Shown piece by piece: positions 8,720 to 58,537 of a stretch of 64,000 bases of DNA (position 1 is its first letter; every line of letters starts with the position of its first letter). The position numbers and the translations under genes were made by a program. The DNA is taken from positions 13,789 to 77,788 of the forward strand of contig CAIKNA010000035.1 of NCBI GenBank assembly GCA_903828645.1, read 5' to 3'. The notes beneath the pieces are model-generated. The model had not been told where the DNA came from. It saw only the letters and a program-made list of their open reading frames with translations, and did not search any database. The DNA is from an uncultured Bacteroidales bacterium. Its GTDB lineage: Bacteria; Bacteroidota; Bacteroidia; Bacteroidales; FEN-979.

Positions 8720-8723
8720 TATT

Positions 8724-10156: not shown

Positions 10157-10195
10157 AATCGTAAATCGTAAATCGTAAATCGTAAATCGTAAATC
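10157..10195. repeat. tandem heptamer array (AATCGTA)x5.5, the reverse complement of the ATTTACG arrays
   Basis: aatcgta x5 + aatc, lying between the ATP-grasp stop (10197) and the decarboxylase start (10105). Confidence 0.95.
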
Positions 10196-10196
10196 C

Positions 10197-11243
10197 CTAC
10201 AGCTCCCCATAAATGCTGATCTGTTCGAACTCTTCCCTGTCAACGATCATATCCCAGGCGTAACGGATGAACATCTTACCCACATCATAGGTGGCAAACG
10301 GAGTTACCTTTTCACCCAAGGCCAGGTTGACCAGTGCTTCGGGTATATTCTGGCCCACTCCGACAGCAAGGTAGATCCAGGCCGGCAGCCGGGGATTTAT
10401 TTCCAGCAAATAAAGTTCACCGTCTTTGTTTTTCATCAGTTCAAGTTCGAAACCACCGCGCCATTTGGTGTTTTTCAGAAACTTCCGTGTCATGTCCAGC
10501 ATTTTTTCATCGGAAATGGATATGCCTCCCCACGCCTTGCCTTTGTCGGTGATGTACTGTTTGCGCATCGGCACCGCGGCGATGGTGTTTCCCTTTCCGT
10601 CGCCCAGCCCGGTCACGTTGAATTCGGTGCCATGGATGAACTCCTGGATGATGATGGGAAGCCCCCATTTGGCGCTGATCTTGTTGAAGTAACTCTTTAC
10701 CTGCTCAATGCTGTACGCGATGGAGGCGTCGTAGAACTTTCCCTTGACGATCATCGGAAAAGAAAATTCCGACGGAAGGCTGTGAACCGTATTGAGATCA
10801 TAGATCACCTTGCTCTTGGGAACACTGATGTTGTATTTCCTTCCGAAATCGTTGAGGTTCACTTTGTGCCGCTCCTCGAACTGGTGCAGGGTGGGCAGGA
10901 ACATGTGAATGCCCATGGCCTTGAGTTTTGGCTCCAGTTTGATAAACGGGTAAAGCTCCGCATCGAAGTTTGGAATGATCACATCGAGTTTCTCCTTCTC
11001 GTGGATATATTCCAGCCGTGCAAGAAGTGTGTCGATACCTGCAGCAGGATATGGGATCGAATAGGTCCGGTCCACGAGGTCGTGCATGTAGATGCCCGGC
11101 TCGAGCGATTCGTAGGAGAGCCCGGTAATGTTTACATCGAACGAGGAGGCCTCCCTCAGCGCCCTGATCACCGATACCCCTGGACCCGGGGAGTCGATGG
11201 CATTCAGCCCGGTTACTGCAATGTTAAGCTTTCGTTTCTTCAT
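10197..11243 (-). CDS. ATP-grasp family ligase (about 348 aa)
   Basis: Start moved to MKKRKLNIAVTG (ATG at 11243). ATP-grasp pattern: PMIVKGKF (Lys loop), IIQEFIHGTEF and ELYLLEINPRLPAW (Mg/ATP-binding E-x-N). Confidence 0.75.
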   Translation of the reverse strand: MKKRKLNIAVTGLNAIDSPGPGVSVIRALREASSFDVNITGLSYESLEPGIYMHDLVDRTYSIPYPAAGIDTLLARLEYIHEKEKLDVIIPNFDAELYPFIKLEPKLKAMGIHMFLPTLHQFEERHKVNLNDFGRKYNISVPKSKVIYDLNTVHSLPSEFSFPMIVKGKFYDASIAYSIEQVKSYFNKISAKWGLPIIIQEFIHGTEFNVTGLGDGKGNTIAAVPMRKQYITDKGKAWGGISISDEKMLDMTRKFLKNTKWRGGFELELMKNKDGELYLLEINPRLPAWIYLAVGVGQNIPEALVNLALGEKVTPFATYDVGKMFIRYAWDMIVDREEFEQISIYGEL

Positions 11244-11484
11244 GGCTTTCGAGGAGGTTGTGATGTTCAAGGATTCCGATGAAGTCGTAATAATCTTTTT
11301 CAAAGGTTGCTTGGTCGGTTGTATATTTATTCAGGATGATCCTGCCGATCTGTTCCGGGTCCTTCTCTTCCCGGATGAGATTGAGGATCTCGATTCCGAT
11401 GGGATTCACCGAAAAGGATTCACCTGTTACCGGGTTGAAAAGCAGCCCGGCCTCGCTGACAGCAACATTTTTTCGCAGTTTCAT
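11224..11484 (-). CDS. PqqD-family small protein (peptide chaperone / RRE-like), 86 aa
   Basis: The pattern ...GLLFNPVTGESFSVNPIGIEILNLIREEKDPEQIGRIILNKY... is the PqqD winged-helix pattern. The 3' end overlaps the ATP-grasp start by 20 nt. Confidence 0.65.
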   Translation of the reverse strand: MKLRKNVAVSEAGLLFNPVTGESFSVNPIGIEILNLIREEKDPEQIGRIILNKYTTDQATFEKDYYDFIGILEHHNLLESHEETKA

Positions 11485-11506
11485 GGGTTTTGTTTTAATG
11501 ATGCTG

Positions 11507-11514
11507 CAATATTA
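11507..11514 (-). promoter_or_regulatory. possible -7 box (TAATATTG, one mismatch) for the PqqD operon
   Basis: 22 nt upstream of the ATG at 11484. Imperfect match to TAnnTTTG. Confidence 0.3.
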
Positions 11515-11573
11515 AGCACACCCCCCGGCCGGGATGTTACGAAATTATAAAAAGGATGTATAAAATTTTAAGA

Positions 11574-13463: not shown

Positions 13464-15294
13464 TTTCAGGTTGTTTTCCGTTTATCAGGTTCCCGCTGAC
13501 CATGCGCTCTTCAAGTTCCTTGCGCTTAACAGTACGGTTCAGGTATTTTTCAATCATAAGGCTGGCGATCGGGGCGGCCCACAATGCCCCTGTACCTGCA
13601 TTTTCAACTACCACCGAGATGGCGATCTTTGCATTGTTCCGGGGTGCAAAGGCGATGAAGAGCGAATGGTTCTTCCCGTGCGGGTTTTGGGCGGTACCTG
13701 TTTTTCCGCAGATGACGATGCTGTCTAGCTGGGCAACTCTTCCCGTTCCCCCGGTTACTACATCTGCCATCCCTTCAATTACCACCTCGAAATACCGCTC
13801 GTCGACCAGTACCTTGTGTTTTACATTGTAGGCCTCGTTCAGGCTGTCTTTTCTTCCGATAGCCCGGATCACATGCGGGGTGTAGTACCATCCCCGGTTC
13901 GAAATAAGGGCGGCCTGGTTGGCGAGTTGCATCGGTGTGATGCCGATTTCGCCCTGGCCGATGGCCAGTGAAATGATGGTCATCGACCGCCAGCGGTTCA
14001 GTCCATGGTATTTATCGTAGTAGGAGGGCGAGGGAATGTTCCCGTTGAGTTCACCGGGAATGTCGATTCCCAGCTTTTTCCCGAACCCGAAGCTCATAAC
14101 CTCTTTACGCCAGCTTTCGTATGCCTGCCGGGTGCTGCTGTATGAGGATTTGTCGATGATCGATTTAAAGACCCGGCAAAAATAGGCGTTACACGATATC
14201 TGGATGGCACCCACCAGGTCGAGGGGTGAGGGATGCGGATGGCACCCCACCTTTTTGCCATTTCCCAACGGAAATCCTCCCTGGCAACCGTAACGTGTTT
14301 CGGGAAAAAGAACCCCCTCCTGCTGACCCACCAGCGCATCCACCAGTTTGAAGGTCGATCCGGGAGGATACATGGCCATCAGGGCCCGGTTGAAAAGGGG
14401 CATATAGACCGTGTCCTGCAGCAGTTTTGTGTAATTCTTCCTGCGGATATTGCCGGCAAGCAGGTTGGGATCGTACGACGGGCTGGTGATAATGCACAGT
14501 ATCTCGCCTGTTTGCGGTTCGATGGCAACGATGCTGCCTTTCTTGTTGGTCATCAGCAACTCGCCATATTCCTGCAACTCCGCGTCAATCGAAGAGTAGA
14601 GATTTGTCCCGGCCACCGAAGTGGTGTCGTACCTGCCGTCACGGAAACTGCCTTTATCCCGGTTCAACACATCGAACACGCGGATCTTCATCCCCTTTTT
14701 CCCGCGGAGGATATCCTCATACGACTTCTCAATGCCGTTGATGCCGATGTAGTCGCCCGGCCGGTAATAACTGTTCTTTTCAATCACCTCCGGGCTCGCT
14801 TCCCCAATATACCCGAAGCTGTGCGCCGCCACCTTGTAGGTGTATTTTCGCAGGGTACGCGACTGAACATAAAATCCCGGGAACAGGAAGAGTTTCTCTT
14901 CAAGGAACCCGTAATTGTCGCGGGTAATCTGTGCTTCAAAAATGGAGGGACGGTACGTGGAATAACTGCTGGCCTTTTCCATGCGGTTGAGAAACTCCTC
15001 CCTGTCGATGCCGAGCAGGTGGCAAAGCGCCATGGTGTCGGGGTTTTTCACCTGCCGCGGTATGACCATCAGGTCATAGGCTGCCTCGTTGTATACAAGC
15101 AGTTTGCCGTTGCGGTCAAACACCAGTCCGCGGGCAGGGTATTGGGTAACATACCGAAGCACATTGTTGTTGGCCGAGAGGATATATTTATCGACCAGGA
15201 TCTGCACATAGAAGAGACGTGCCAGGTAGACAATGCCGATCAGCAGGAAAAACCCGATGATGATGTATTTCCGGTCAGCGTAAATCCGTTCCAT
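13429..15294 (-). CDS. mrdA: penicillin-binding protein 2 (elongasome transpeptidase)
   Basis: Active-site motifs SxxK (GSTFKL), SxN (QISCNAYF) and KTGT (GKTGTAQ). N-terminal TM anchor. Paired with rodA. Confidence 0.9.
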   Translation of the reverse strand: MERIYADRKYIIIGFFLLIGIVYLARLFYVQILVDKYILSANNNVLRYVTQYPARGLVFDRNGKLLVYNEAAYDLMVIPRQVKNPDTMALCHLLGIDREEFLNRMEKASSYSTYRPSIFEAQITRDNYGFLEEKLFLFPGFYVQSRTLRKYTYKVAAHSFGYIGEASPEVIEKNSYYRPGDYIGINGIEKSYEDILRGKKGMKIRVFDVLNRDKGSFRDGRYDTTSVAGTNLYSSIDAELQEYGELLMTNKKGSIVAIEPQTGEILCIITSPSYDPNLLAGNIRRKNYTKLLQDTVYMPLFNRALMAMYPPGSTFKLVDALVGQQEGVLFPETRYGCQGGFPLGNGKKVGCHPHPSPLDLVGAIQISCNAYFCRVFKSIIDKSSYSSTRQAYESWRKEVMSFGFGKKLGIDIPGELNGNIPSPSYYDKYHGLNRWRSMTIISLAIGQGEIGITPMQLANQAALISNRGWYYTPHVIRAIGRKDSLNEAYNVKHKVLVDERYFEVVIEGMADVVTGGTGRVAQLDSIVICGKTGTAQNPHGKNHSLFIAFAPRNNAKIAISVVVENAGTGALWAAPIASLMIEKYLNRTVKRKELEERMVSGNLINGKQPESERGQGNILPD

Positions 15295-15300
15295 ATGCCC

Positions 15301-15828
15301 TTAGCGCCTCTTCAGGATGATGGGTGGGGTGGAATCCACATTGCTTTTATTCAGTGCGCGATCGTAGATGAAGAATTTAAACTTGATGGTGTCGTGCACC
15401 GGAAACGGGTTCAGGGTCAGGGTATCCACGATGATTCCCTTGATCGCCTTGCTGGGGTCGTTTGGAGTAAGGTAGGGGATGCGGGCATTATAGGAAGGAT
15501 CGAGACTCACCTTTACGAAGGTGCCGTACTGCTTTTCGTAGTAATCAATGATGTAGTCGTAATAATAGATGCTCCCGGTATCGAAAGGGGGCTGTGTCTG
15601 AGTGGGCAACAGTCCGATGTCGCCGTTCCCGTCCTTGAACGAAATGGTGAGAAAACCGCGTTTGGCATACATCCCCGAATCGAACTGCATGGTAAAGTTC
15701 TCGAATTGTATGGCAGGTATGTCGGGGTAAACCTCTTTTTTCATACACGATGAAAACAGCATCATAACTGAAGTCAGCGCGATAAAAAAGCAATTGCGAA
15801 AACCTTGAAGATTGCGATAAAACATCAT
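15301..15828 (-). CDS. hypothetical lipoprotein, 175 aa
   Basis: Lipobox-like LFSSC after a hydrophobic stretch. Occupies the position upstream of mrdA where mreD often sits, but it is not polytopic. Confidence 0.55.
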   Translation of the reverse strand: MMFYRNLQGFRNCFFIALTSVMMLFSSCMKKEVYPDIPAIQFENFTMQFDSGMYAKRGFLTISFKDGNGDIGLLPTQTQPPFDTGSIYYYDYIIDYYEKQYGTFVKVSLDPSYNARIPYLTPNDPSKAIKGIIVDTLTLNPFPVHDTIKFKFFIYDRALNKSNVDSTPPIILKRR

Positions 15829-15881
15829 GAAAGGGTCAACGTTTATTCAGTACCTTTACGGGCTGTAAAAGTACAAAAAAA

Positions 15882-16850
15882 GTGGGAAATATTTTTGAAA
15901 TATCCTCCGAAGCTGAGTTCACAGCCTGCGCACTGGAATTGTTCCGTTATCAATACAAGCAGAACGCAGTGTATCATGCATTCGTGGAGGCGCGCAAAGT
16001 GGTTGTTGAAAACATCCTACGGGTGGATGATATCCCTTTTCTCCCCATCGAATTTTTCAAAACCCATGATGTGGTTTGCGGGAATGTCCCTCCCCAGGCC
16101 ATCTTCCGCAGCAGCGGGACAACAGGCATGGTCCGCAGCCGCCACCTTGTTACCGATCTGACCGTGTATCGCCGCTCATTCATCAAGGGCTTTGAACATT
16201 GTTACGGGGACCCGGAGGATGTCCAGTTCCTGGCCCTCACGCCCACACCCGAACAGGCTCCCGATTCATCGCTCGTTTACATGATCCAGAAGCTGATGGA
16301 TGTTAGCAGCAGCCCCGAAAATGGCTTTTTCCTGGCCAGCCATTCGGGATTGAGCGCCCGGTTGCGTCAGCGGCGTGCACGGAACAAAAAGGTTGTGCTG
16401 ATAGGCCTTACCTATGCGCTCGTCGATTTTGCTGCCAGTTATCCCGGGGATTACACCCCGCTCATCGTCATCGAAACCGGCGGAATGAAAGGGCATCGCA
16501 CCGAAATCACCCGCGAAGAGCTTCATTCACTTCTTTGCCCTGCTTTCGGCGTAGAGCAGATCCATTCGGAATATGGCATGACCGAATTGTTGTCACAAGC
16601 CTGGTCGCAGGGAGAGGGACGTTTCAATACCCCCCCGTGGATGAAGGTGCTGATCAGGGATGCCAATGATCCGCTGGGATATGTGGGCACCGGGGAGACC
16701 GGGGGCATCAACATCATCGACCTGGCCAACCAGGATTCATGCAGTTTCATCGCCACCCAGGACCTTGGCCGCATGCATTATGACGGACAATTTGAAGTCC
16801 TTGGCCGGTTTGAAGCTTCCGATGCAAGAGGGTGCAGCCTTCTTATCTGA
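15882..16850 (+). CDS. LuxE/PaaK-like acyl-adenylate-forming enzyme (acyl-protein synthetase family), 322 aa
   Basis: FRSSGTTG adenylation motif and a YGMTE motif. Size and layout are typical of Bacteroidota LuxE-like proteins. GTG start. Confidence 0.6.
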   Translation: MGNIFEISSEAEFTACALELFRYQYKQNAVYHAFVEARKVVVENILRVDDIPFLPIEFFKTHDVVCGNVPPQAIFRSSGTTGMVRSRHLVTDLTVYRRSFIKGFEHCYGDPEDVQFLALTPTPEQAPDSSLVYMIQKLMDVSSSPENGFFLASHSGLSARLRQRRARNKKVVLIGLTYALVDFAASYPGDYTPLIVIETGGMKGHRTEITREELHSLLCPAFGVEQIHSEYGMTELLSQAWSQGEGRFNTPPWMKVLIRDANDPLGYVGTGETGGINIIDLANQDSCSFIATQDLGRMHYDGQFEVLGRFEASDARGCSLLI

Positions 16851-16888
16851 TTTACGATTTACGATTTACGATTTACGATTTACGATTT
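16850..16888. repeat. tandem heptamer array (ATTTACG)x5.5
   Basis: Starts on the last base of the TGA stop (16848-16850): tgATTTACGATTTACG... Confidence 0.95.
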
Positions 16889-17062
16889 TAAGCCTGACTT
16901 CTGACAGGATTGGTGTCGGGTTCTTTTAACTCTATGTGTTTCTAAGTGACCTTAGTGCCTAAGTGGTTTGTTAGGGATCAACCAAAATTATTATATTTGT
17001 TATGGTCAAAAAGGACGATGCCTGGATTTTTGAGAATCAGGCATGATTTCAATTAAATTAAA

Positions 17063-17281
17063 ATGAAACCACAAATAAATAATCCCCTCCATGGGAAAAC
17101 CCTGGAGATGATCCTGAACCACCTCCTTACACTATACAGATGGGAAGATCTGTATAAACTGATCAGAATCAATTGCTTTCTTGAGAATCCCAGTGTAAAA
17201 TCCAGCCTGATATTTTTGCGGAAAACACCCTGGGCACGAAAAAAAGTCGAAGATCTTTACCTTGAGAGCTTAAATTCTTAA
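17063..17281 (+). CDS. VF530/DUF2132-family small protein, 72 aa
   Basis: [24 protein letters not shown]...[16 protein letters not shown] matches the DUF2132 pattern as I remember it. Confidence 0.6.
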
Positions 17282-17286
17282 ATTTG
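17279..17286 (+). promoter_or_regulatory. Bacteroidota -7 box (TAAATTTG)
   Basis: Exact TAnnTTTG, 43 nt upstream of the ATG at 17330. Confidence 0.4.
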
Positions 17287-17329
17287 TATTTGCAGTCCAG
17301 ATCGGAGTATTTACTTCAATACGGCAAAT

Positions 17330-20300
17330 ATGAAAAAGCTTTTTAATTTCCGGAAATTCAGTTTCATGCTGTTGATCTGCCTTTTTACGACAGGCAGCCT
17401 GTTGGCGCAGACCAATATCGTATCTTCACCGGACACAGCCAGCTATCCTTACTGGATCAGGATGATGCAGGACCCGGATGCAAATTATTTTGCGACCGTC
17501 AGCGCATTTGAAAAATACTGGGAAAACAGGCCTATAACCAGGGGATGCGGATGGAAGGTTTTTAAAAGATGGGAGTATATCATGAGGAACCGGGTCAAGC
17601 CGGATGGCACCAAACCCGCTCCGGATGCTGTTTACAGGGAATGGAATAAGTTTCACAACCCGGCACGGTCCCCCAATGGCAGTTGGGTGTCCCTGGGCCC
17701 CTCCTACATCCCGGCTCCCGGACCTGCAGGTTACATGGGACTTGGCAGACTAAATGTGGTGGCTTTTCACCCGACAAACCAGAACAAGCTCTATGTGGGG
17801 TCGCCTTCGGGCGGCTTCTGGCTCACCTCCGACAACGGCGCTACCTGGAATACCACGACCGATAACATGCCGACCATCGGCGTTTCAGCCATCGTGGTCG
17901 ATTTTTCGAATCCCGCGACAATCCTGATGGGTACCGGCGACCGTGATCATGGCGATGCTCCGGGGATGGGGGTCTTCAAAAGCATCGACGGGGGAACCAC
18001 CTGGATGCAATCCAATACGGGCATGGGCAATGTGACAGTATGCAGGATGGTCCAGCACCCGGGGAATGGACAGATCTTCCTGGCTGCCACATCAAACGGG
18101 ATCTACCGGTCAACCAACGGGGGAACCACCTGGACCCAGACTGCGGCGGGCTATTTCCAGGATATCTGTTTCAAACCGGATGATCCGGACGTGGTCTATG
18201 TTGAATCTTCCTCCGATTTTTACAGGTCTTCCGACAACGGACTAACCTTTTCCCAGGTAACTACCGGACTGACCCCCGGCCAGCGGGGGACCATCGCGGT
18301 CACGCCGGCCAACCCTGGTTATGTCTATTTCCTGCAATCCGACAATTCCAGCGGCTTCAAGGGCGTTTACCGGTCAACCGATGCGGGCCTCTCTTTCACA
18401 ACCAGGTCGGAAATACCCAATATCCTCGGCTGGTCGTGCGATGGCAGCGATACGGGCGGGCAGGGCTGGTACGACCTGGCCATCGCGGCCGATCCTGGCA
18501 ATGCTGAAACAATCTACGTCGGTGGCGTGGATGTATGGAAATCTGTGAATGGCGGAACATCCTGGACCATCAATTCCCACTGGTACGGAGGATGCAATGT
18601 GCCGGCTGTGCATGCCGACTGCCATTTCCTGGGCTTTTCGCCGGTAAATGGGAGACTCTATGCAGGCAATGACGGTGGAATCTATTATTCAGCAAACGGG
18701 GGTATCGACTGGACAGACTGCACTGTCGGAATGACGATCGGGCAGATTTACAAGATCGGGCAAAGCCTTACAGATCCCGCCTTGACGATCAACGGTTTCC
18801 AGGACAATGGTACCTATACCAATACCTCCTCGGGATGGGTCTCCACCGGCGGCGGTGACGGGATGGAATGCGCCGTCGATTACCAGGATGCAGCCATCAC
18901 CTATTATACCATTTATTATGGCTCGATATTCAGGACCCTGAATAATTCCACAGTATTACAGGTTGCCGGCGACGGGGTTTTCGGCATCGATGAATCCGGA
19001 GGATGGGTTACCCCGTTCATCCTTGACCAAGCAGACCCGAAAAAACTGTTTGCGGGGTATAAAAACGTATGGCGGTGCAACGATGCCAGGTCGGATTCGC
19101 CTGTCTGGACGAAAATATCATTCTCAGAAACAACAGACTGCTGGGTACTTGAACAATCTCCGGCAAATCCTGATCTGTTGTACGTGGTACGATCCGGAAA
19201 TATGCAGCGTACAGAGAATGCAAATGCCGCCGCCCCGGTCTGGATAAACTGTGCACTTCCCGGAGGATTTACACCATCCTGCCTTGAAGCTCATCCCACC
19301 GAACCGAATACGGTTTATGCCACGGCTGAATTCTATGTATATAAGTCCATTGATAAGGGAGAGACCTGGAGCCTTGTTCCTGGCACCTTACCCGGCGTTC
19401 CGGTGAATACCGTCGTTTATGAGAAACACAGCGACGAAGGTTTGTATATCGGAACCCAGACCGGTGTCCTTTACCGGAATTCCGGACTGCCTGACTGGGT
19501 GAATTTCAGCAGCGGTTTGCCTGTAGCCGATGTCAGGGAACTGGAAATTTACTATGACGCAAATCCTGCCAACAGCAGGCTCATGGCAGCTACTTTCGGC
19601 CGCGGACTCTGGAAATCAAAGCTCTATTCGCCACCGAGTTTGCCTCCGGTTGCAAAATTTTCATTCAGCCCGTCAGGACCCTGCCCGATGCAAACGGTTC
19701 AGTTCACCGACTTGTCTCTGAATGTTCCGACCTCCTGGTCATGGACTTTTACCCCAAACACTGTCCTTTTTGTCAATTCAACAAATTCCTCCTCCCGCAA
19801 TCCTCAGGTCAGGTTTTCCGAAAACAGGGCCTACACAGTAACACTGACGGGTACAAATGCATTTGGCTCCGACGCTGCCGATACGATCATCATGGTCGGC
19901 GGTGCGGGTGCACCGCTCGCTGCCAACTTTGAGGCGGGTTCTTTCCCCGCAGCATGGACCATCTTCAACCCCGATGGCTCGATTACCTGGAATATTTCAA
20001 CGACCGGTGGTAATCCCCCCGGAACAAAATCGGCATACATTGATTTTTTTGATTACAGTTCTACCGGCGAGCTGGATGAAATGATCCTGGAACCGGTTAA
20101 CCTGGGTGGTGCCCTCCATCCATGGCTGAAATTCCGGGTCGCATACCGGAAGTGGGATGCCGGCTACTTCGATGGATTGAAGATTTTCATCTCCACCGAT
20201 TGCGGCACTTCCTGGGAAACAAACCCTCTATATGACAAATCGGGAACCCAACTGGCTACCGGACCCGACCAGACCGAACTTTTCGTGCCATCGGTTTCCA

Positions 20301-20959
20301 CCGACTGGAGGGTGGATTCCATTGACCTGGGCGCATACCTGCACCTTCCGGTAAAAATTAAATTCCAGGCAGTGAACGGGTGGGGAAACAACCTCTATGT
20401 GGATGATATCTCCATCGCCGATGATCCCGTTCTGACCCTGCAAAACACGATTGTGGGAAACGGACAGTCATCCTGTTACAATGCAACGCAAACAATCCGC
20501 GTGGCAGGGGGGGGAACCCGGTTTCTTGTTCAGGCAGGGGGCAGTGCCACCTTAATAGCCGGGCAGAACATATTGATGTTCCAGGGAGTCAGCGTGAACA
20601 CAGGAGGTTACCTTCACGGGTATTTGACATCAACCGGCCAGTACTGCGGCCAGCTGCCGGCTTCCCTGGTAAGTGCCATTTTAAAGGAGGAAGCCGGTAG
20701 TCCGGTTCCAGAAGTCAATACCTTTAAAATATATCCCAACCCGAATGGCGGAACATTCACCCTGGAATGGTCAGATCCCGGTTGTTATGGATCGTATGAA
20801 ATCGAAATTTTCAGCATCCTTGGGGAGTGCGAAATGAAGGAATCTGTTTTTTCAGGACAAAAACATTCATTCAACATTCCCATGCTGTCTCCCGGGATCT
20901 ACCTGGTCAGGGTAACGGGTAAAAACGGCACCGGCCTGGTAAAAATGATCAGGTACTAA
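17330..20959 (+). CDS. T9SS-secreted multidomain protein, 1209 aa: BNR/Asp-box beta-propellers + PKD + MAM-like domain + Cys-bracketed module + Por C-terminal sorting domain
   Basis: Signal peptide. At least 8 Asp-box-like SxDxGxTW repeats (TSDNGATW, SIDGGTTW, STNGGTTW, SVNGGTSW, SIDKGETW...). PKD-like segment VAKFSFSP...YTVTLTGTNAFG. C-terminal FKIYPNPNGGTFTL...GIYLVRV is the T9SS tail. Confidence 0.8.
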   Translation: MKKLFNFRKFSFMLLICLFTTGSLLAQTNIVSSPDTASYPYWIRMMQDPDANYFATVSAFEKYWENRPITRGCGWKVFKRWEYIMRNRVKPDGTKPAPDAVYREWNKFHNPARSPNGSWVSLGPSYIPAPGPAGYMGLGRLNVVAFHPTNQNKLYVGSPSGGFWLTSDNGATWNTTTDNMPTIGVSAIVVDFSNPATILMGTGDRDHGDAPGMGVFKSIDGGTTWMQSNTGMGNVTVCRMVQHPGNGQIFLAATSNGIYRSTNGGTTWTQTAAGYFQDICFKPDDPDVVYVESSSDFYRSSDNGLTFSQVTTGLTPGQRGTIAVTPANPGYVYFLQSDNSSGFKGVYRSTDAGLSFTTRSEIPNILGWSCDGSDTGGQGWYDLAIAADPGNAETIYVGGVDVWKSVNGGTSWTINSHWYGGCNVPAVHADCHFLGFSPVNGRLYAGNDGGIYYSANGGIDWTDCTVGMTIGQIYKIGQSLTDPALTINGFQDNGTYTNTSSGWVSTGGGDGMECAVDYQDAAITYYTIYYGSIFRTLNNSTVLQVAGDGVFGIDESGGWVTPFILDQADPKKLFAGYKNVWRCNDARSDSPVWTKISFSETTDCWVLEQSPANPDLLYVVRSGNMQRTENANAAAPVWINCALPGGFTPSCLEAHPTEPNTVYATAEFYVYKSIDKGETWSLVPGTLPGVPVNTVVYEKHSDEGLYIGTQTGVLYRNSGLPDWVNFSSGLPVADVRELEIYYDANPANSRLMAATFGRGLWKSKLYSPPSLPPVAKFSFSPSGPCPMQTVQFTDLSLNVPTSWSWTFTPNTVLFVNSTNSSSRNPQVRFSENRAYTVTLTGTNAFGSDAADTIIMVGGAGAPLAANFEAGSFPAAWTIFNPDGSITWNISTTGGNPPGTKSAYIDFFDYSSTGELDEMILEPVNLGGALHPWLKFRVAYRKWDAGYFDGLKIFISTDCGTSWETNPLYDKSGTQLATGPDQTELFVPSVSTDWRVDSIDLGAYLHLPVKIKFQAVNGWGNNLYVDDISIADDPVLTLQNTIVGNGQSSCYNATQTIRVAGGGTRFLVQAGGSATLIAGQNILMFQGVSVNTGGYLHGYLTSTGQYCGQLPASLVSAILKEEAGSPVPEVNTFKIYPNPNGGTFTLEWSDPGCYGSYEIEIFSILGECEMKESVFSGQKHSFNIPMLSPGIYLVRVTGKNGTGLVKMIRY

Positions 20960-20980
20960 CGACAGGATTTATCCTGTCGT
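20959..20980. terminator. hairpin between convergent genes (acgacagg-atttat-cctgtcgt)
   Basis: 8-10 bp perfect inverted repeat between the TAA at 20957-59 and the SRAP gene stop at 20980-82. Confidence 0.5.
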
Positions 20981-21648
20981 CAGAAGCCTGACTCCTCCAC
21001 CCGGTCAAGGATCTCCGGCACGTCGTTTTTTGGCGCGTTGACCAGTTTTGAAACCGGCCATGCTTCCATTTTCTCCGCAGCATAGGGTCTCAGCAAGTCA
21101 GCCAGGGAGGGGTCGGCTTGCGGTGCGATCCAGCGAAGTTCGTCTTCTCGGCTGAGGATTACCGGCATGCGATCGTGGATGTGTTCCACCAGTTGGTTGG
21201 GAGAGGTGGTAATGACGGTGAAGGAATGGATGATCTCCCCATCCCCGGAGATCCATTTGTCCCAAAGCCCTGCAAAACAAAAAGGATCGCCACTTTTCAA
21301 CCGGAAGTGAAACGGGGTCTTTCCCGCGTTGCTTTTCCATTCATAAAAACCGGTAGCCGGGACCAGGCAGCGCCGGTGGCGGAAGGCATCCCTGAATGAG
21401 GGTTTTTCAGCCAGCGATTCCGCGCGGGCGTTGATCAGCTTGTTGCCGATGGATGGCTCCTTAGCCCAGGAAGGGATGAGTCCCCAGCGGAAAAACTTCA
21501 GGGTATCCGGCGCATCACCGGCAATCACCGCCAGGTTCTGGGTTGGGGAGCAGTTGTAACGGGCTTTGTAGATTGCCGTGCGAACCCTGAGCCCGAACCG
21601 TTCCAGGATCAGGGCATCTTCAACAGCAAAGGAATAGCGTCCGCACAT
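20980..21648 (-). CDS. SOS-response-associated peptidase (SRAP/YedK, abasic-site DNA-protein crosslink enzyme)
   Basis: Invariant N-terminal MCGRYS (catalytic Cys2). NARAES...FYEW motifs. 222 aa. Confidence 0.85.
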   Translation of the reverse strand: MCGRYSFAVEDALILERFGLRVRTAIYKARYNCSPTQNLAVIAGDAPDTLKFFRWGLIPSWAKEPSIGNKLINARAESLAEKPSFRDAFRHRRCLVPATGFYEWKSNAGKTPFHFRLKSGDPFCFAGLWDKWISGDGEIIHSFTVITTSPNQLVEHIHDRMPVILSREDELRWIAPQADPSLADLLRPYAAEKMEAWPVSKLVNAPKNDVPEILDRVEESGF

Positions 21649-21653
21649 AGTTG

Positions 21654-22346
21654 CTATTTTCCGTTTATCTCTTTTCCCGCGACCACGATGACAATCTCCC
21701 CTTTAACTGTTTTCTTCTCAAAATAGGCTATCAGTTCTTTCAGGGAACCCCGGATGTTCTCTTCGAATATTTTAGAAAGTTCCCGTGAAACAGAGGCGTA
21801 GCGTTCTTCCCCGAAATACTCCGTAAATTGTGTAAGGGCTTTTACCAGGCGATGCGGCGATTCGTAAAAGATCATTGTTCTTTCCTCGCCGGCCAAAGTG
21901 GTGAGACGGGTATGACGTCCTTTTTTATGAGGCAAAAATCCTTCGAAGATAAAATGGTCGGAGGCAATTCCCGAGTTGACGAGTGCGGGAACGAATGCGG
22001 TCGGGCCGGGCAGACACTCCACACGGATTCCTGCCTCAATGCACGAATGCACCAGCAGGTAACCCGGGTCGGAAATGGCTGGTGTGCCAGCGTCGCTGAT
22101 CAGGGCGCAGGTAGCTCCGTCAAGGATTCGCCCGATAATGTTTTCGATCGTCTTATGCTCATTGAAAAGATGGTGGGGCACCAGTTTCTTCTCTATGCCA
22201 TAATGTTTGAGGAGGTTCCCCGAGGTGCGGGTATCCTCTGCCAGGATAAAATCAACCTCCTTCATAATGCGCAGGGCGCGCAGGGTAATGTCCTCAAGAT
22301 TCCCGATGGGTGTGGGTACAATGTATAACTGGGTGGCAATTCTCAT
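21654..22346 (-). CDS. rsmI: 16S rRNA (cytidine1402-2'-O)-methyltransferase
   Basis: LYIVPTPIGNLEDITLRAL...ILAEDTR...ISDAG(T)P matches the tetrapyrrole-methylase-fold RsmI signature. 230 aa. Confidence 0.85.
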   Translation of the reverse strand: MRIATQLYIVPTPIGNLEDITLRALRIMKEVDFILAEDTRTSGNLLKHYGIEKKLVPHHLFNEHKTIENIIGRILDGATCALISDAGTPAISDPGYLLVHSCIEAGIRVECLPGPTAFVPALVNSGIASDHFIFEGFLPHKKGRHTRLTTLAGEERTMIFYESPHRLVKALTQFTEYFGEERYASVSRELSKIFEENIRGSLKELIAYFEKKTVKGEIVIVVAGKEINGK

Positions 22347-24579: not shown

Positions 24580-24615
24580 AAGTGTGTTCCCGGCAAGTGA
24601 GCACACTTTTTTTTT
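24580..24615 (+). terminator. intrinsic-terminator-like hairpin + T9 tract, oriented on the plus strand
   Basis: 10-bp stem aagtgtgttc/gagcacactt (one G-U pair), 9-nt loop ccggcaagt, then ttttttttt (24607-24615). No plus-strand gene lies upstream. Confidence 0.5.
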
Positions 24616-24616
24616 G

Positions 24617-24651
24617 GCCACCTGTCACGTGTCACCTGTCACGCGTCACGA
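24617..24651. repeat. tandem heptamer array (GTCACNN)x5
   Basis: gccacct gtcacgt gtcacct gtcacgc gtcacga. Overlaps the last codons and the stop of purN. Confidence 0.85.
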
Positions 24652-25204
24652 TCTTCTCAATCACCTCCGGAAAATACGTGTATTCCAGCACATGAATCCT
24701 GGCCGCGAGGCTTTCAGGCGTATCTCCCACCGACACCGGGCATTTCGCCTGGAAAATAATGTGTCCTTCGTCATAATGTTCATCCACGTGATGAATCGTG
24801 ATTCCTGATTCACGCTCGCCTGAAGCGATCACGGCTTCATGAACTTTCATTCCGTACATCCCCTTGCCTCCGTATTTTGGGAGGAGGGCCGGGTGGATGT
24901 TGATGATCCTGCCGGGAAATGCGGCAATCAGGGTTTTAGGTATGAGCCAGAGAAATCCGGCCAGGATTATAAAATCAATACCATGTGATTCCAGTGTTTT
25001 CCCGACCAGGCCGGTTTCGTAAAATGAGGCCCGGTCGAAAACCATTGCCGGAATGCCAAGCTTTTCAGCGCGGGTCAGCACATAGGCACCGGGCTTGTTG
25101 CACAACAGCAAGTCAATGCTGATGGAAGGATGCCCGCTGAAATATTCGGTGATCCGCTGGGCATTGGAACCATTGCCAGAGGCAAAAACGGCTAATCGCG
25201 ACAT
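24632..25204 (-). CDS. purN: phosphoribosylglycinamide formyltransferase
   Basis: Start moved to MSRLAVFASGNGSNAQ (ATG at 25204). INIHPALLPKYGGKGMYG and HxVDEHYDEG motifs. Confidence 0.9.
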   Translation of the reverse strand: MSRLAVFASGNGSNAQRITEYFSGHPSISIDLLLCNKPGAYVLTRAEKLGIPAMVFDRASFYETGLVGKTLESHGIDFIILAGFLWLIPKTLIAAFPGRIINIHPALLPKYGGKGMYGMKVHEAVIASGERESGITIHHVDEHYDEGHIIFQAKCPVSVGDTPESLAARIHVLEYTYFPEVIEKIVTRDR

Positions 25205-25225
25205 GTTCGGCTCATTGGTGATTCG

Positions 25226-25233
25226 CAAAAGTA
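25226..25233 (-). promoter_or_regulatory. Bacteroidota -7 box (TACTTTTG)
   Basis: Exact TAnnTTTG, 21 nt upstream of the purN ATG at 25204. Confidence 0.45.
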
Positions 25234-25401
25234 CAAAACCCTCAAGATATACCGTAGCGTGAAACAGCAAGTCTGACCAATTCTTCAAGTATCACAAAAT
25301 CAGCGATGTTGATTTTGCAAATGTTAAAAATTCTTAAATTATGTTGGAGTGTAGGAAGAAAATTCTTTTCTTTGCAGTCGTTTAACCAAAAAAAAATTAA
25401 C

Positions 25402-30333: not shown

Positions 30334-31351
30334 ATGCCCCTGTAAATTGTTTCAAAAACCGAACATCATTTTCAAAAAACAACCGCAGGTCCTTGATCTG
30401 GTATTTTAACATTGTGATTCGTTCAATCCCCATCCCGAAGGCAAAACCGGTGTAAGTCTGGCTGTCGATGCCGCAATTTTCAAGGGCATTCGGATCAACC
30501 ATGCCGCAACCAAGGATTTCAACCCACCCCGTATATTTGCAGATATTGCAACCCACCCCGCCGCAAATGTTGCAGCTCACATCCATCTCTCCTGAGGGTT
30601 CCGTAAACGGGAAATAGGAGGGGCGAAGCCTGATTTTCGTGCTTTCTCCAAACATCTCTTTGGCAAAGTACATGAGGGTCTGCTTGAGATCGGCAAAGGA
30701 TACATTCTTGTCGATATAGAGCCCTTCAACCTGGTGAAAGATGCAGTGAGCACGCGCCGAAATGGCCTCATTCCGGAAAACCCGCCCCGGGAAGATCATA
30801 CGGATCGGAGGTTTGGTGGTCTCCATGGTCCGTATCTGGACCGATGATGTGTGGGTGCGCAGCAGGATGTCGGGATTGGTGGCGATAAAGAATGTATCCT
30901 GCATATCCCTTGCAGGGTGATCAGGAGTGAAGTTTAGAGCCGAAAAATTGTGCCAGTCGTCTTCGATCTCTGGCCCGTCGGCTACGGTAAAACCTATCCT
31001 GCCAAAGATGTCGATGATCTGTTTCCTGACAATCGATAATGGGTGCCGCGAACCTGGCTGGAGGTTTTCGGCCGGCCGGGTGAGGTCAAGCTTGGCCAAT
31101 GAGGCTGTTTCATCCTGATCAAAGCCCGATTTTAATTCGTCGATTTTCTGATGAGCCTTGTTTTTAAGATCGTTCAGAAGTAGTCCTACCTCGCGCTTCG
31201 TATCGGCCGGAACGCTTTTGAAATCATCAAACAGCACCGAAACCAGTCCTTTTTTGCTGAGATATTTCAAACGAATCTCCTCAACCTCGACCAGACTGGC
31301 AGCTTTCAACGACTCAACCTCGGCAACTAACCGATTAATCCGCTCTATCAT
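30329..31351 (-). CDS. pheS: phenylalanine--tRNA ligase alpha subunit
   Basis: Class II motifs (HPARDMQDTF, FPGRVFRNEAISARAHCIFHQVEG, GFAFGMGIERI). 340 aa. Confidence 0.95.
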   Translation of the reverse strand: MIERINRLVAEVESLKAASLVEVEEIRLKYLSKKGLVSVLFDDFKSVPADTKREVGLLLNDLKNKAHQKIDELKSGFDQDETASLAKLDLTRPAENLQPGSRHPLSIVRKQIIDIFGRIGFTVADGPEIEDDWHNFSALNFTPDHPARDMQDTFFIATNPDILLRTHTSSVQIRTMETTKPPIRMIFPGRVFRNEAISARAHCIFHQVEGLYIDKNVSFADLKQTLMYFAKEMFGESTKIRLRPSYFPFTEPSGEMDVSCNICGGVGCNICKYTGWVEILGCGMVDPNALENCGIDSQTYTGFAFGMGIERITMLKYQIKDLRLFFENDVRFLKQFTGAF

Positions 31352-31372
31352 AAATCGTAAATCGTAAATCGT
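31352..31372. repeat. tandem heptamer array (AAATCGT)x3, forming the whole 21-nt intergenic spacer
   Basis: On the minus strand the sequence reads TAA-ACGATTTACGATTTACGATTT-ATG, from the cyclophilin stop to the pheS start. Confidence 0.95.
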
Positions 31373-54722: not shown

Positions 54723-56180
54723 ATGGAATCCGAAGCGAACAAAATCCTGGATGAAGTCACTCAGGGTGATTACAAGTACGGCTTTGTCACGGATATCGAC
54801 ACAGAATTTGCCCCTGTCGGGCTTTCTGAAGATACCATCCGCTATATTTCGACGAAAAAGAACGAACCTGAATTCATGTTGGAATTCAGGCTGAAAGCAT
54901 ACCGCCACTGGCTTACACTGGTGCAGCCAAAATGGGCCCACCTCAGGATCGGTCCGATCAACTTCCAGGAGATCATCTTTTATGCCGCACCAAAGAAAAA
55001 AAAGGAGCTGTCCAGCCTCGATGAGGTTGACCCCGAATTGCTGGCTACATTTAACAAGCTTGGGATTTCGCTGGATGAGCAAAAAAAGCTGGCCGGCGTG
55101 GCAGGAATTGCAGTGGATGCAGTGATCGACAGCGTATCGGTGAAGACCACTTTTTCAGATACCCTTTCAAAGCATGGGATTATCTTTTGCTCTTTCAGTG
55201 AGGCAGTGCAGAACCATCCCGCGCTGGTGAAGCAATATATGGGGTCGGTAGTGCCTTATACCGATAACTATTTTGCCGCGCTCAATTCAGCGGTATTCAG
55301 TGATGGTTCATTCTGTTTTATTCCAAAAGGCGTTCGATGCCCCATGGAATTATCCACCTATTTCAGGATCAATGCCGCCAATACCGGGCAGTTTGAACGC
55401 ACGCTGATCGTGGCCGAAGAGGGCGCTTATGTGAGTTACATGGAAGGCTGTACGGCGCCCCAGCGCGATGAGAACCAGCTTCATGCCGCCATCGTTGAGA
55501 TCGTTGCCATGAAAGATGCCGAAGTGAAATATTCAACTGTGCAAAACTGGTACCCCGGCGATAAAAACGGGTTGGGAGGGATATACAATTTCGTGACGAA
55601 ACGGGGAATTTGCAAGGGAAATAACTCCAAGATCAGCTGGACCCAGGTGGAGACCGGATCGGCCATTACGTGGAAATATCCGAGTTGCATCCTGCTTGGC
55701 GACAACTCGGTGGGCGAGTTCTATTCGGTTGCCGTCACCAATAACTACCAGCAGGCCGACACAGGAACAAAGATGACGCATCTTGGAAAGAATACCCGGA
55801 GCACGATCATTTCCAAGGGGATATCCGCCGGGAAAAGCAACAACTCATACCGCGGCCTGGTGCGCATTTCGAAAAATGCCGTCAACTCGCGCAACTACAG
55901 CCAGTGTGATTCGCTGCTGCTTGGCGCCCGATGCGGGGCACATACCTATCCCTACATCCAGGTTGACAATAAGTCCTCGATCGTTGAACATGAAGCCACC
56001 ACATCCAAAATTTCCGAAGACCAGCTTTTTTATTGCCAGCAGCGCGGGATTTCTGCGGAAAGCGCCATCGGGCTGATCGTAAACGGTTATGCCAAGGAGG
56101 TGTTGAAACAACTGCCCATGGAATTCGCGGTGGAAGCACAAAAATTGCTGTCGATCTCCCTGGAAGGAAGCGTTGGGTAA
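54723..56180 (+). CDS. sufB: Fe-S cluster assembly protein SufB
   Basis: 485 aa. YKYGF..., the conserved C-terminal SufB/D fold ([16 protein letters not shown]...SYRG) and [18 protein letters not shown]. Confidence 0.95.
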
Positions 56181-56221
56181 TTTACGATTTACGATTTACG
56201 ATTTACGATTTACGATTTACG
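56180..56221. repeat. tandem heptamer array (ATTTACG)x6
   Basis: Starts on the last base of the sufB TAA (56178-80). A degenerate TTTGAC/TTTGAT heptamer-like tract follows at 56234-56267. Confidence 0.95.
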
Positions 56222-56276
56222 ATTTTTGCGCTGATTTGACTTTTGACATTCATATTTGATTTTTGAATTTTTTTCT

Positions 56277-57029
56277 ATGTTATTACAAATTAAAAACCTG
56301 CATGCCAGTATTCATGGCAAAGAGATTCTCAGGGGGGTCGACCTCGAAGTGAACAAGGGCGAAGTGCATGCCATCATGGGGCCGAACGGAACCGGGAAAA
56401 GCACCCTGGCTTCAGTCATTGCCGGGAGGGAAGTTTTTGATGTCACGGCCGGGGAGATACTCTACCAGGGGAAAGACCTTCAGAAACTTTCCATTGAAGA
56501 CCGTGCCCGCGAAGGGATATTTCTTGGATTTCAGTATCCGGTGGAAATTCCGGGGGTGAGCATCACCAACTTTATGCGCACCGCGGTGAATGAAGTACGC
56601 AAGTTCAAGGGACTTGACCCGCTGCCGGGAGGTGAGTTTCTCAGGCTGATGGAAGAGAAGAAAAGGCTGGTCGAAATCACCTCGAATCTCACAAACCGCT
56701 CGGTAAATGAAGGCTTTTCAGGAGGCGAAAAGAAAAAAAATGAAATTTTCCAGATGGCGATGCTTGAACCCATGCTGGCCATCCTCGATGAAACTGACTC
56801 GGGGCTCGATATCGATGCCCTGCGCATCGTGGCCAATGGCGTGAACAAATTGCGGCGCCCCGACAACGCTTTCGTGATAATCACTCATTACCAGCGGCTT
56901 CTCGACTATATCATTCCCGACTTTGTGCATGTGCTGTTTGAAGGCAAAATTGTCAAATCGGGGGGGAAAGAACTGGCGCTCGAACTCGAAGAAAAGGGTT
57001 ACGACTGGATAAAAAAAGAACAAGAGTAG
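56277..57029 (+). CDS. sufC: Fe-S cluster assembly ATPase SufC
   Basis: Start moved to MLLQIKNLHASI (ATG at 56277). Walker A GPNGTGKST, ABC signature FSGGEKKK, Walker B ILDETDSGLD. Confidence 0.95.
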   Translation: MLLQIKNLHASIHGKEILRGVDLEVNKGEVHAIMGPNGTGKSTLASVIAGREVFDVTAGEILYQGKDLQKLSIEDRAREGIFLGFQYPVEIPGVSITNFMRTAVNEVRKFKGLDPLPGGEFLRLMEEKKRLVEITSNLTNRSVNEGFSGGEKKKNEIFQMAMLEPMLAILDETDSGLDIDALRIVANGVNKLRRPDNAFVIITHYQRLLDYIIPDFVHVLFEGKIVKSGGKELALELEEKGYDWIKKEQE

Positions 57030-57086
57030 CACATCCACCCCTCTCCTGAAGGAGAACGGGCCCGGGGTGAGGTAAAAACATTTGCA

Positions 57087-58496
57087 ATGCAACCCGAAAA
57101 TAAAGAAATAATAACAGCTGAACGGTTTATCTCCCTGTTTGAAAAAAACCGGGCTTTCCTGGAAACCTTTGATACAAAAGCCCTGGTCAAAATCCGCGAG
57201 GATGCCATGGCTTCATTTACCAGGCTGGGATTCCCTGATACCACCATGGAAACCTGGCGCCTGACCGACCTTGAGGAGAGTTTTAACCGTGGTTATGATT
57301 ACCACCTTCAACCGTTCGAAGATGTGGATGCTCAGAAGGTGTTCCGGTGCAACATTCCCCATCTCGATACCGCCGTGATCGGGCAACTCAACGGGTGGTA
57401 TGTTTCAAAAGATGTCCCGCTGATGGAGCTTGGCAACGGGATCATCATGGGCAGCCTGGCGGATGCCCGTAAAAAATACCCGCAATTAATCGAAAAATAT
57501 TTTGGCACCATGGCCGATGATGCCGGCGAAGGATTCACCGCACTGAATACTGCTTATACCCAGGACGGGGTTTTTATTTATGTGCCCGACAACGTGAAAA
57601 GCCCGAAACCGGTGCAATTGATCAACGTGATCCATCATGACCAGAACCTTTTCCTGCAGTCGCGTAACCTCATCGTGGTCGGAGCCAATGCAAGGCTCTC
57701 ACTCGTACATTGCGATGATTCATACAACCACCAGGCAAGTTTTTCAAATATTGTCACAGAGATCCACGTAGGTGAACATGGTGTGATGGATCATTACAAA
57801 CTGCAGAATCTCAATAACAACAGCACCCTCATCAGTTCTGTTTATTTCCGGATGGAGGCATCGGCCAGCCTGGAGTCTCATTACATCTCCCTGAACGGCG
57901 GCCTCCTTCGGAACAACATCCGGGTGCTTTTCAATGGCCCGCACGGTACCGCCAATATTTACGGCATTTATCTCATGGACCGCAGGCAGCATGTCGACAA
58001 CCAGGTATTTGTGGACCATGCTCATTCCGGTTGTACCAGCAATGAGACCTTCAAGGGAATCCTGGATGAGAATGCCCGCGCCATCTTCAACGGACATGTG
58101 CTGGTTCGCCGCAATGCCACGAAAACAGATGCGCGTCAGAGCAACAAGAATATTTTACTCACCGATACGGCAAGGGTTAATTCGAAACCCTTCCTGGAGA
58201 TCTACAATGATGATGTTAAATGCTCTCATGGCTCAACTACCGGCCAGCTTGACCCGGAATCGATGTTTTACCTGCGTCAGCGCGGCATCGGAGAGGAGAC
58301 CGCCCGTATGTTGCTGATGTTTGCCTTTGCCGACGAGATTGTAACGAAAATTGCCATCCCGCAGCTGCGCCAGCGCATCGAGGATATGGTTAAGAAAAGG
58401 TTGCAGGGGGAACTTCAGATTTGCGAACAGTGTGTGCTACATTGCAGTACACCGGAACACCCGATGGAGTTTCAGATAGATATGAGCAAAATTTAG
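57087..58496 (+). CDS. sufD: Fe-S cluster assembly protein SufD
   Basis: 469 aa in the sufB-sufC-sufD order. C-terminal SufB/D fold (KPFLEIYNDDVKCSHGSTTGQLD...FYLRQRGI). Confidence 0.9.
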   Translation: MQPENKEIITAERFISLFEKNRAFLETFDTKALVKIREDAMASFTRLGFPDTTMETWRLTDLEESFNRGYDYHLQPFEDVDAQKVFRCNIPHLDTAVIGQLNGWYVSKDVPLMELGNGIIMGSLADARKKYPQLIEKYFGTMADDAGEGFTALNTAYTQDGVFIYVPDNVKSPKPVQLINVIHHDQNLFLQSRNLIVVGANARLSLVHCDDSYNHQASFSNIVTEIHVGEHGVMDHYKLQNLNNNSTLISSVYFRMEASASLESHYISLNGGLLRNNIRVLFNGPHGTANIYGIYLMDRRQHVDNQVFVDHAHSGCTSNETFKGILDENARAIFNGHVLVRRNATKTDARQSNKNILLTDTARVNSKPFLEIYNDDVKCSHGSTTGQLDPESMFYLRQRGIGEETARMLLMFAFADEIVTKIAIPQLRQRIEDMVKKRLQGELQICEQCVLHCSTPEHPMEFQIDMSKI

Positions 58497-58502
58497 AAAA
58501 GG

Positions 58503-58537
58503 AATATCGAATATCGAATATTGAATAACGAATTTTT
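58503..58537. repeat. tandem heptamer array (AATATCG)x4-5, decaying
   Basis: aatatcg aatatcg aatattg aataacg aattttt, in the 53-nt spacer after sufD. Confidence 0.85.

Follow-up and report, generated by a model that had tools for sequence, protein, structure and literature searches.

Slippage-driven ATTTACG arrays at gene ends: a bacterial heptanucleotide repeat that tends to a polar placement at stop and start codons

The short tandemly repeated repetitive (STRR) sequences of cyanobacteria are heptamers, which Mazel et al. reportedly described in 1990; CCCCAGT, TTGGTCA and CAACAGT are among the units that define them in heterocystous cyanobacteria. Here we describe arrays of another heptamer, ATTTACG, found at five gene junctions in a stretch of 64,000 nucleotides (hereafter the window) from an uncultured Bacteroidales bacterium (assembly GCA_903828645.1, contig CAIKNA010000035.1, positions 13,789 to 77,788). 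These arrays almost certainly belong to a known class of slippage-driven heptanucleotide simple sequence repeats (SSRs), which includes the long SSRs (LSSRs) of Mrázek, the STRRs and the TAACTGA repeats. The class is already known, and what is new is the ATTTACG unit and the lineages that carry it.

In the accounts of Mrázek et al. (2007) given in PMC4679880 and PMC4692102, heptamers are the most over-represented class of bacterial LSSRs. As far as those two accounts describe them, LSSRs are head-to-tail heptamers above chance length, mostly intergenic and phylogenetically patchy, with a dominant period of 7, all of which they share with the ATTTACG arrays; slippage is the assumed mechanism and the function is left unexplained. 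The recurrence of one unit across phyla and the polarity at gene ends go beyond what is described there. TAACTGA repeats, typically in 2-6 copies, have their A-rich, stop-bearing strand just upstream of starts in spacers poor in Shine-Dalgarno (SD) sites in Beggiatoaceae, Cyanobacteria and some Bacteroidetes (MacGregor 2015, PMC4679880), and one set in the reverse orientation immediately follows a stop codon in F. litoralis (PMC4679880). As with ATTTACG, a single intergenic heptamer predominates within a genome and reappears in distant phyla, and neither repeat has an evident gene-function pattern or transfer mechanism. However, the units are different, the phyla carrying ATTTACG differ from those carrying TAACTGA and are wider, and the arrays in the window mostly present a stop-free strand directly after stop codons rather than before starts; no TAACTGA array is present in the window. 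STRRs and the heptamers of Nostoc are likewise tandem and intergenic, with several unit families per genome, and they often lie near starts or promoters, where a regulatory role has been suspected and a binding partner postulated (bioRxiv 10.1101/2022.06.06.494920; PMC4692102). Their units (CCCCAGT, TTGGTCA, TTTTGAA, GGGGAYT and others) differ, and some are G-rich and quadruplex-forming, whereas ATTTACG has no structure-forming potential. An assignment to the cyanobacterial STRRs proper was rejected because of the different unit and the Bacteroidota-like host, whose proteins in the window include type IX secretion system (T9SS) sorting domains. The closest analogue characterized by experiment is the (ATCTTTC)n repeat of H. 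influenzae hmw1A and hmw2A, a rheostat in the transcribed 5'-untranslated region (UTR), where slippage grades expression; this repeat forms a long hairpin with a G-rich partner, is cleaved by RNase III and needs at least 11 units (PMC12721329). Both are 7-nt SSRs subject to slippage, but the ATTTACG arrays have 3-7 units and no pairing partner, follow stop codons in housekeeping operons and occupy many loci. A previous reading of the window, made from the sequence only, was aware of no described function for the arrays. This holds in the sense that none is established for the class, although a wholly undescribed element they are not, since heptanucleotide repeats of the LSSR, STRR and TAACTGA type had been described. 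A literature search with ATTTACG, covering both strands and rotations of the unit, returned only unrelated primers and constructs and no paper describing the unit.

The five ATTTACG arrays named in that reading are all present where it placed them (Table 1; limits from Tandem Repeats Finder and period-7 runs), with the correction that the array at 56180 ends at 56225 and not at 56221. A two-unit ATTTACG probe with at most one mismatch has 17 matches in the window, all inside the five arrays, compared with 0.03 expected from shuffles, and 7 is the only enriched tandem period among periods 2 to 15. Each array begins at the stop codon of the upstream gene, as had been claimed, either overlapping it or within 0-1 nt of it. 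At 56180, in a sufB/sufC/sufD operon (54723-58496, plus strand), the first base of the array is the last A of the sufB stop (TAA, 56178-56180; 1-nt overlap), and the sufC ATG at 56277 lies 51 nt 3' of the array. The array at 16849 overlaps by 2 nt the TGA (16848-16850) of the LuxE-like gene; the next gene, from 17330, encodes a T9SS-sorted protein. At 10157 the array lies 1 nt after the TAG stop (10199-10197) of the ATP-grasp gene (10197-11303), with the ATG of the decarboxylase gene (10105) 51 nt beyond it. The 27-nt spacer at 8724 is nearly all array, with the decarboxylase stop (TAA, 8749-8747) inside the array; the urea-transporter/M23 gene is called from a TTG (8719), 4 nt past the array. 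The array at 31347 fills the entire 21-nt spacer from the stop of the PPIase gene (TAA, 31375-31373), which it abuts, to the start of pheS, in the form TAA-ACG-ATTTACG-ATTTACG-ATTT-ATG; its perfect part covers 31351-31372, and the pheS ATG is part of its last unit, the variant ATTTATG. The three longer spacers (91, 96 and about 480 nt) each have their array at the very end next to the stop, an outcome with a chance of about 1 in 100,000, calculated from the coordinates, if placement were uniform.

The mRNA sense is ATTTACG at four of the five junctions, as previously stated, and the array at 8724 reads CGTAAAT because its flanking genes are on the minus strand. Direct reading also agrees with two further statements, that the complementary strand carries TAA every 7 nt and that the open reading frame (ORF) track renders the arrays as IYDLRFT peptides. 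Neither strand of the ATTTACG arrays contains a start codon. All heptamer arrays of the window lie between called genes, those of ATTTACG in short spacers whose flanking genes run in one direction, and the genes flanking the five ATTTACG arrays share no common function. An SD-like motif is found upstream of only 7 of the 49 genes in the window, whose composition is mildly enriched in A upstream of starts and in T after stops.

The arrays are not assembly artefacts. The window derives from a freshwater or lake metagenome. Contigs from four independent metagenome runs (built at k=31) enter the array from unique flanking sequence on either side and break about 26 nt into it, the same array loci are found in independent ENA and JGI assemblies, and ATTTACG arrays occur also in Mb-scale contigs of metagenome-assembled genomes (MAGs) and in chromosome-level records from other phyla. 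A check for copy-number polymorphism, which the sequence-only reading had suggested, revealed whole-unit (7-nt) differences among near-identical strains; the polymorphic arrays (56180, 58502, 31347 and 4945) were found in strains 99.5-99.9% identical elsewhere. Over 6,767 nt, strain L299 differs from the window by 10 substitutions and two 7-nt indels and by no other indel, having one unit fewer in the ATTTACG array at 56180, whose flanks are otherwise identical, and one fewer in the GAATATC array at 58502. The PPIase-pheS spacer is 14 nt in strains L390, L391 and L392 (one unit fewer) against 21 nt in the window, and in strains L395 and L396 the (AAAATGC)n array at 4945 has lost one unit and gained another, its length remaining constant. 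The arrays at 8724 and 10157 are invariant in 4 other contigs. Gain and loss of whole units is the signature of slipped-strand mutation, and the ATTTACG case is direct evidence for 7-nt slippage between co-occurring strains. Spacerless heptamers above chance, whole-unit variation and a mainly non-coding location, by which a long SSR is defined, are thus all found.

Turnover of arrays was evident at the sufB-sufC junction of 80 relatives (70-86% SufC identity), which were retrieved by SufC homology and thus not selected for arrays. ATTTACG is found at this junction in none of the 80, and at least 11 have an array of a different heptamer there; with different heptamers at orthologous junctions, individual arrays are short-lived. 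The spacer is typically 30-50 nt in the relatives and 96 nt in the window, 46 of them array. In the relatives' sample as a whole (382 kb) there are 17 period-7 runs, compared with 0.6 in shuffles, and they belong to 16 unit families. Arrays are thus often born, they are added onto an ordinary spacer, and their sequence is not conserved.

An exact three-unit scan with one genome per species detected (ATTTACG)3 at no fewer than 116 loci in over ten phyla. Among the matches listed, the carriers are Bacteroidota (Bacteroidales, Saprospiraceae, Chitinophagales, Pedobacter, Flavobacteriales), Ignavibacteria, Verrucomicrobiota (including Akkermansia MAGs), Acidobacteriota, Chloroflexota, Armatimonadota, Planctomycetota, Nitrospirota, Desulfobacterota, Cyanobacteria, Actinomycetota and Proteobacteria, and the GC content of the carrier loci is 29-68% (median 53%), the unit itself having 29%. 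Carriers known at chromosome level are OY969416.1, OY970256.1, OY970194.1 and the JABTUK01 contigs. The earlier suspicion that other assemblies carry the element is therefore borne out at the DNA level, but a Bacteroidota lineage element it is not, being spread over many phyla and absent from the sufB-sufC junction of relatives. In X1, one of the lake metagenomes that contain this genome, the ATTTACG array drew 481 contigs with unrelated flanks, compared with 14 for the GAATATC array, and its summed depth was 15,000-22,000 against about 12 for the flanks. Viral contigs of IMG/VR contain (ATTTACG)3 at 43 loci, composition-matched control heptamers at 14, 3 and 16, and TAACTGA at 106. The counts from X1 and IMG/VR indicate that ATTTACG is preferred, although heptamer arrays are common in general. 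When ATTTACG is removed from the carrier loci, 124 period-7 arrays remain against 24 of period 8, and period 7 outnumbers every other; several of these other units are one-mismatch variants of ATTTACG, and the variant units retain a GATTT core.

Some carrier loci have arrays longer than those of the window. Arrays of 11-18 units were found in MAGs of Saprospiraceae, Chitinophagaceae, Chloroflexia and Ignavibacteria (L011, 5512-5639; L074, 6878-6971; L083, 2459-2534; L094, 2805-2898), two of them reaching contig ends. The ATTTACG array often adjoins unrelated heptamer arrays (L004, L013, L026, L033, L055, L078, L093, L100 and L109), with units such as CACGCCT, AACAGCT, CACGTTT, ACAACTA, TCCCGTG, CTGGCAT, CACCTTT and TCGATTT, suggesting that some intergenic regions are mosaics of several heptamer families. 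ATTTACG arrays are also carried by 'giant virus' bins (GVMAG; L125, L139, L143, L146 and L152 of IMG/VR), with at least 15 units in L152; either bacterial contigs are included in these bins or the arrays exist also in large viruses.

The position of the arrays relative to gene ends was counted after orienting each to ATTTACG, with a dominant-ORF gene model and a threshold of 15 nt. Among genes whose stop end faces an array, the stop was within this distance in 49 of 73 cases on the 5' flank of ATTTACG and in 21 of 61 on its 3' flank. The viral contigs replicate this stop polarity (16/21 vs 10/27), which is stronger still for TAACTGA arrays of viral contigs when these are oriented as TCAGTTA (49/90 vs 1/31); it agrees with the placement that MacGregor described for TAACTGA (PMC4679880). 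A strict ATG was found within 15 nt on the A-rich side in 17 cases and on the other side in 5, start calls being uncertain, and many arrays have a CAT 3-10 nt away. In the window the stop-bearing strand lies just upstream of a start at one of the five arrays, that at 8724. The T-rich, stop-free strand thus tends to follow stops, and the A-rich, TAA-bearing strand appears to precede starts more often than the other. A count that omits genes ending inside the TAA-bearing strand gives 44 vs 14-16, which is inflated, whereas counting all long frames over-corrects. When the criteria T>A, stop-free, pyrimidine-rich and C>G were applied to all other heptamer families, the numbers were small and inconsistent. 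The starts of 93 of 130 arrays are in the (G)ATTTACG register, and between convergent genes (L058, 5770-5821; L097, 3604-3720) each gene has its own sense array, so that an inverted pair results; both the register bias and the inverted pairs fit the orientation tendency. In these two loci, and also in L057 (4642-4893), the opposite ATTTACG arrays make up a long near-perfect palindrome, which in L058 has a stem of about 24 bp and a loop of 2-4 nt and could act as a bidirectional hairpin.

Repetitive extragenic palindromic (REP) sequences, bacterial interspersed mosaic elements (BIMEs), clustered regularly interspaced short palindromic repeats (CRISPR) and terminators are likewise short, repeated and intergenic, but the arrays lack the dyad, the spacers and the stem with a T-run by which these are distinguished. 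That they are neither REP-type hairpins nor CRISPR arrays, and that the units are not self-complementary, had been deduced from the letters; folding and an inverted-repeat scan agree with it. When seven array-bearing spacers were folded against dinucleotide shuffles, four were less structured (z = +1.3 to +1.9) and the remaining three gave +0.4, +0.7 and, for the 21-nt PPIase-pheS spacer, -1.15. No relevant inverted repeat was found by the scan; the only pair is an 11-nt repeat, 91% complementary (AGCACAAAAAT at 56135-56145 and ATTTTTGCGCT at 56222-56232), which flanks the sufB-sufC array with its left arm in sufB and may be due to chance. The folding values and the scan speak against a regulatory hairpin between the array and a partner region, as formed by the hmw repeat. 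REP/BIME was rejected for lack of an imperfect palindrome or stem-loop, and CRISPR because repeats of 23-50 nt with unique spacers of similar length are expected, in place of a spacerless 7-nt unit. The whole window has no match in Rfam 15 at the gathering threshold. A consensus scan for promoters (-35/-10 hexamers spaced 16-18 nt) and terminators (GC-rich stem and T-run), which does not cover Bacteroidota-type promoters, gave site counts at chance and did not flag the arrays; the sole terminator-like site near an array is a weak hairpin at 16900-16920, 3' of the array at 16849. TTTACG/TTGACG units resemble -35 hexamers, a role that was rejected because more than half of the arrays (co-directional antisense and convergent ones) would point away from any gene. 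A Rho-utilisation site was rejected because the sense strand has no YC dinucleotides, and a hexamer in common with helix 44 of 16S rRNA (UCGUAA) is most likely a coincidence. Clustering of 1,238 neighbouring ORFs from 159 array loci yielded no linked gene, the largest family being found at 7 of the loci, and no mobile element recurs beside the arrays, nor any regulator gene of the sort that might bind them in the manner of ToxR-type TTTTGAT repeats or iterons. The phased binding site suggested in the sequence-only reading is an arithmetical possibility, 21 bp being two helical turns. The lack of a recurrent neighbour family indicates that the arrays are neither the cargo of a gene nor partner to one.

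The account that we favour, and consider somewhat probable as a whole, is that the arrays are transcribed, unstructured spacers which mutate by slippage and have a tuning role. They would be transcribed as intercistronic or UTR RNA and serve as spacer modules free of structure that lengthen or shorten by 7 nt at a time, a role suggested by the scarcity of SD sites in this genome. Directly behind a stop codon, the T-rich, stop-free strand would be permitted or even preferred. Its A-rich complement, with TAA in all three frames, would be favoured right before a start, presumably as an unstructured track for ribosome landing or re-initiation. The net effect may be tuned translational coupling and possibly mRNA processing, rather than on/off control, and the dominance of one unit would reflect a sequence-dependent preference, through either RNA selection or a seeding bias. 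The role in translation or RNA, taken by itself, is put forward tentatively. No RNA run containing the locus was found, and transcription, processing and the translational effect are all inferred. Several observations weigh against this account. The orientation bias is about two-fold, a tendency rather than a rule; an A-rich strand before starts does not extend cleanly to other heptamer families or to the arrays at the suf junction of relatives, and at 31347 it is the T-rich strand that runs straight into a start codon. AUGs are present in the (AAAAUGC)n array, so that freedom from start codons is not general to heptamer arrays either. Specific arrays are not conserved at orthologous junctions, which fits neutral, short-lived sequences better than a needed regulatory site. 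Pure slippage, on its side, leaves unexplained why one unit is common to 5 of the about 9 arrays found in 64 kb and why a unit of 29% GC is found in genomes of up to 68% GC.

The arrays might instead be neutral or selfish microsatellites, produced by 7-nt slippage that the replisome favours and surviving where they are harmless, in the first nucleotides after a stop, with mild background composition (T-rich after stops, A-rich before starts) accounting for their orientation. The composition of the window shows just such A and T enrichments, turnover is fast and orthologous junctions are not conserved, the arrays, being both perfect and polymorphic, resemble young active microsatellites, viral contigs contain arrays of composition-matched heptamers too (3-16 loci, vs 43 for ATTTACG), and a polymerase-slippage preference is offered in the literature. 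We nevertheless regard this explanation as rather unlikely. Independent births predict differing units, and the 17 arrays of the suf junction do comprise 16 families, but a single unit accounts for five arrays in the window and for 481 contigs in the lake community, compared with 14 for GAATATC, and it is present in genomes so rich in GC that their local composition would not give rise to ATTTACG.

A further explanation is that (AUUUACG)n, its complement or both are a sequence-specific cis-element, a multivalent array for a conserved factor that binds single-stranded nucleic acid, in a polar post-transcriptional network; ribosomal protein S1, an RNase or a protein with a cold-shock domain (footprint about 7 nt) might be such a factor. 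Such a network was proposed by MacGregor for TAACTGA (PMC4679880), and the papers on Nostoc and Beggiatoaceae propose a binding partner. ATTTACG occurs at many loci per genome in over ten phyla whatever the genome GC, outnumbers its composition-matched controls 3-14-fold in viral contigs, shares with TAACTGA a polarity at stops and starts, and shows the bias in start phase (93/130) and the retained GATTT core described above. However, ATTTACG exceeds the control heptamers by a modest margin, the neighbouring genes offer no candidate factor in cis, relatives have unrelated heptamers or none at the same junctions, and the two orientations give complementary RNAs, which one RNA-binding protein could not both recognize; this explanation is thus unlikely. 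It is still less likely that the arrays spread by templated or copy-paste seeding, that is, polar DNA-level spreading within or between genomes, for which template switching, a very small non-autonomous element or recombination involving single-stranded DNA with repeats might be responsible, followed by drift through slippage. The single dominant unit, the biased register, the inverted pairs between convergent genes in L058 and L097 and the patchy phylogeny including viral contigs would agree with seeding, whereas no conserved flanks, target-site duplications or associated gene were found, and other units have formed arrays at these junctions with no trace of insertion. We know of no such mechanism for pure 7-nt arrays. 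An improbable extension of these ideas is that ATTTACG, TAACTGA and other dominant heptamers are sites of an undescribed conserved, orientation-dependent process, which may consist of a cross-phylum factor that binds single-stranded nucleic acid and reads 7-nt registers at gene ends, or of a templated adding or spreading of repeats by which one unit comes to lie behind stops and ahead of starts in unrelated bacteria.

The previous listing was restricted to ATTTACG, and other period-7 arrays exist in the window, all at gene junctions (Table 1); 5 of the 7 perfect period-7 arrays have the ATTTACG unit. The array at 4945, read in the sense of minus-strand mRNA, has one AUG per 7-nt unit, and its open frame continues into the TPR gene, whose start is placed within the array by gene callers. 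Slippage would alter which of these AUGs lie in frame, so that the N-terminus or the start site could be phase-variable. The weaker array at 24619 directly adjoins an inverted repeat with a T-run (AAGTGTG...CACACTT, 24580-24616). A perfect 12-nt tandem repeat (CCCCGGGCTCAT, 2.8 copies, 6104-6136) lies within the 499-aa ORF 5013-6512, which has no Pfam match, and would be an in-frame coding repeat. An apparent minus-strand operon (6509-11550) encodes a PqqD-like protein, an ATP-grasp protein (ATPgrasp_Ter), an Orn/DAP/Arg decarboxylase and a fusion of urea transporter and peptidase M23; an AraC-type regulator gene lies upstream, and two of its junctions have ATTTACG arrays. It looks like a small-molecule or peptide-modification cluster.

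Table 1. Heptamer arrays and suf genes of the 64-kb window
Feature	Position	Strand	Context
(ATTTACG)6.6 array	56180-56225	+	sufB-sufC junction; mRNA sense ATTTACG
(GATTTAC)5.7 array	16849-16888	+	after LuxE-like acyl-protein synthetase gene; in mRNA sense
(ATTTACG)5.6 array	10157-10195	-	ATP-grasp/(Orn/DAP decarboxylase) junction; in mRNA sense
(ATTTACG)3.7 array	8724-8749	+	decarboxylase/(urea-transporter-M23) junction; mRNA sense CGTAAAT
ATTTACG array, 3.7 units, 94% matches	31347-31372	-	PPIase-pheS junction; in mRNA sense
(TTTGCAT)9.4 array	4945-5010	+	between stop of ORF 5013-6512 and TPR gene; minus-strand mRNA (AAAAUGC)n
(GAATATC)4.6 imperfect array	58502-58533	+	between sufD stop (58496) and ATG of MutS-domain gene (58550)
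Weaker period-7 array (CACGTGT/CACCTGT)	24619-24650	+	minus-strand ORF 24632-25288 ends inside
Weaker period-7 array	32056-32083		gene junction
sufB	54723-56180	+	Pfam families, translation
sufC	56277-57029	+	Pfam families, translation
sufD	57087-58496	+	Pfam families, translation

ATTTACG arrays fragment short-read assemblies, the window array being one such break point in Logan contigs; they also yield spurious 'hypothetical proteins' of IYDLRFT repeats and misplaced annotated starts. Heptamer over-representation in bacteria has been known since 1990-2007 and its function has never been explained. ATTTACG is abundant in freshwater and soil communities and occurs in over ten phyla, its orientation tendency is measurable and is common to the unrelated TAACTGA, and cultivable carriers exist (Pedobacter sp. 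BS3 and AJM, Subsaximicrobium wynnwilliamsii G#7). The recurrence of this unit across phyla, its TAACTGA-like orientation and its cultivable carriers make an old question more testable.

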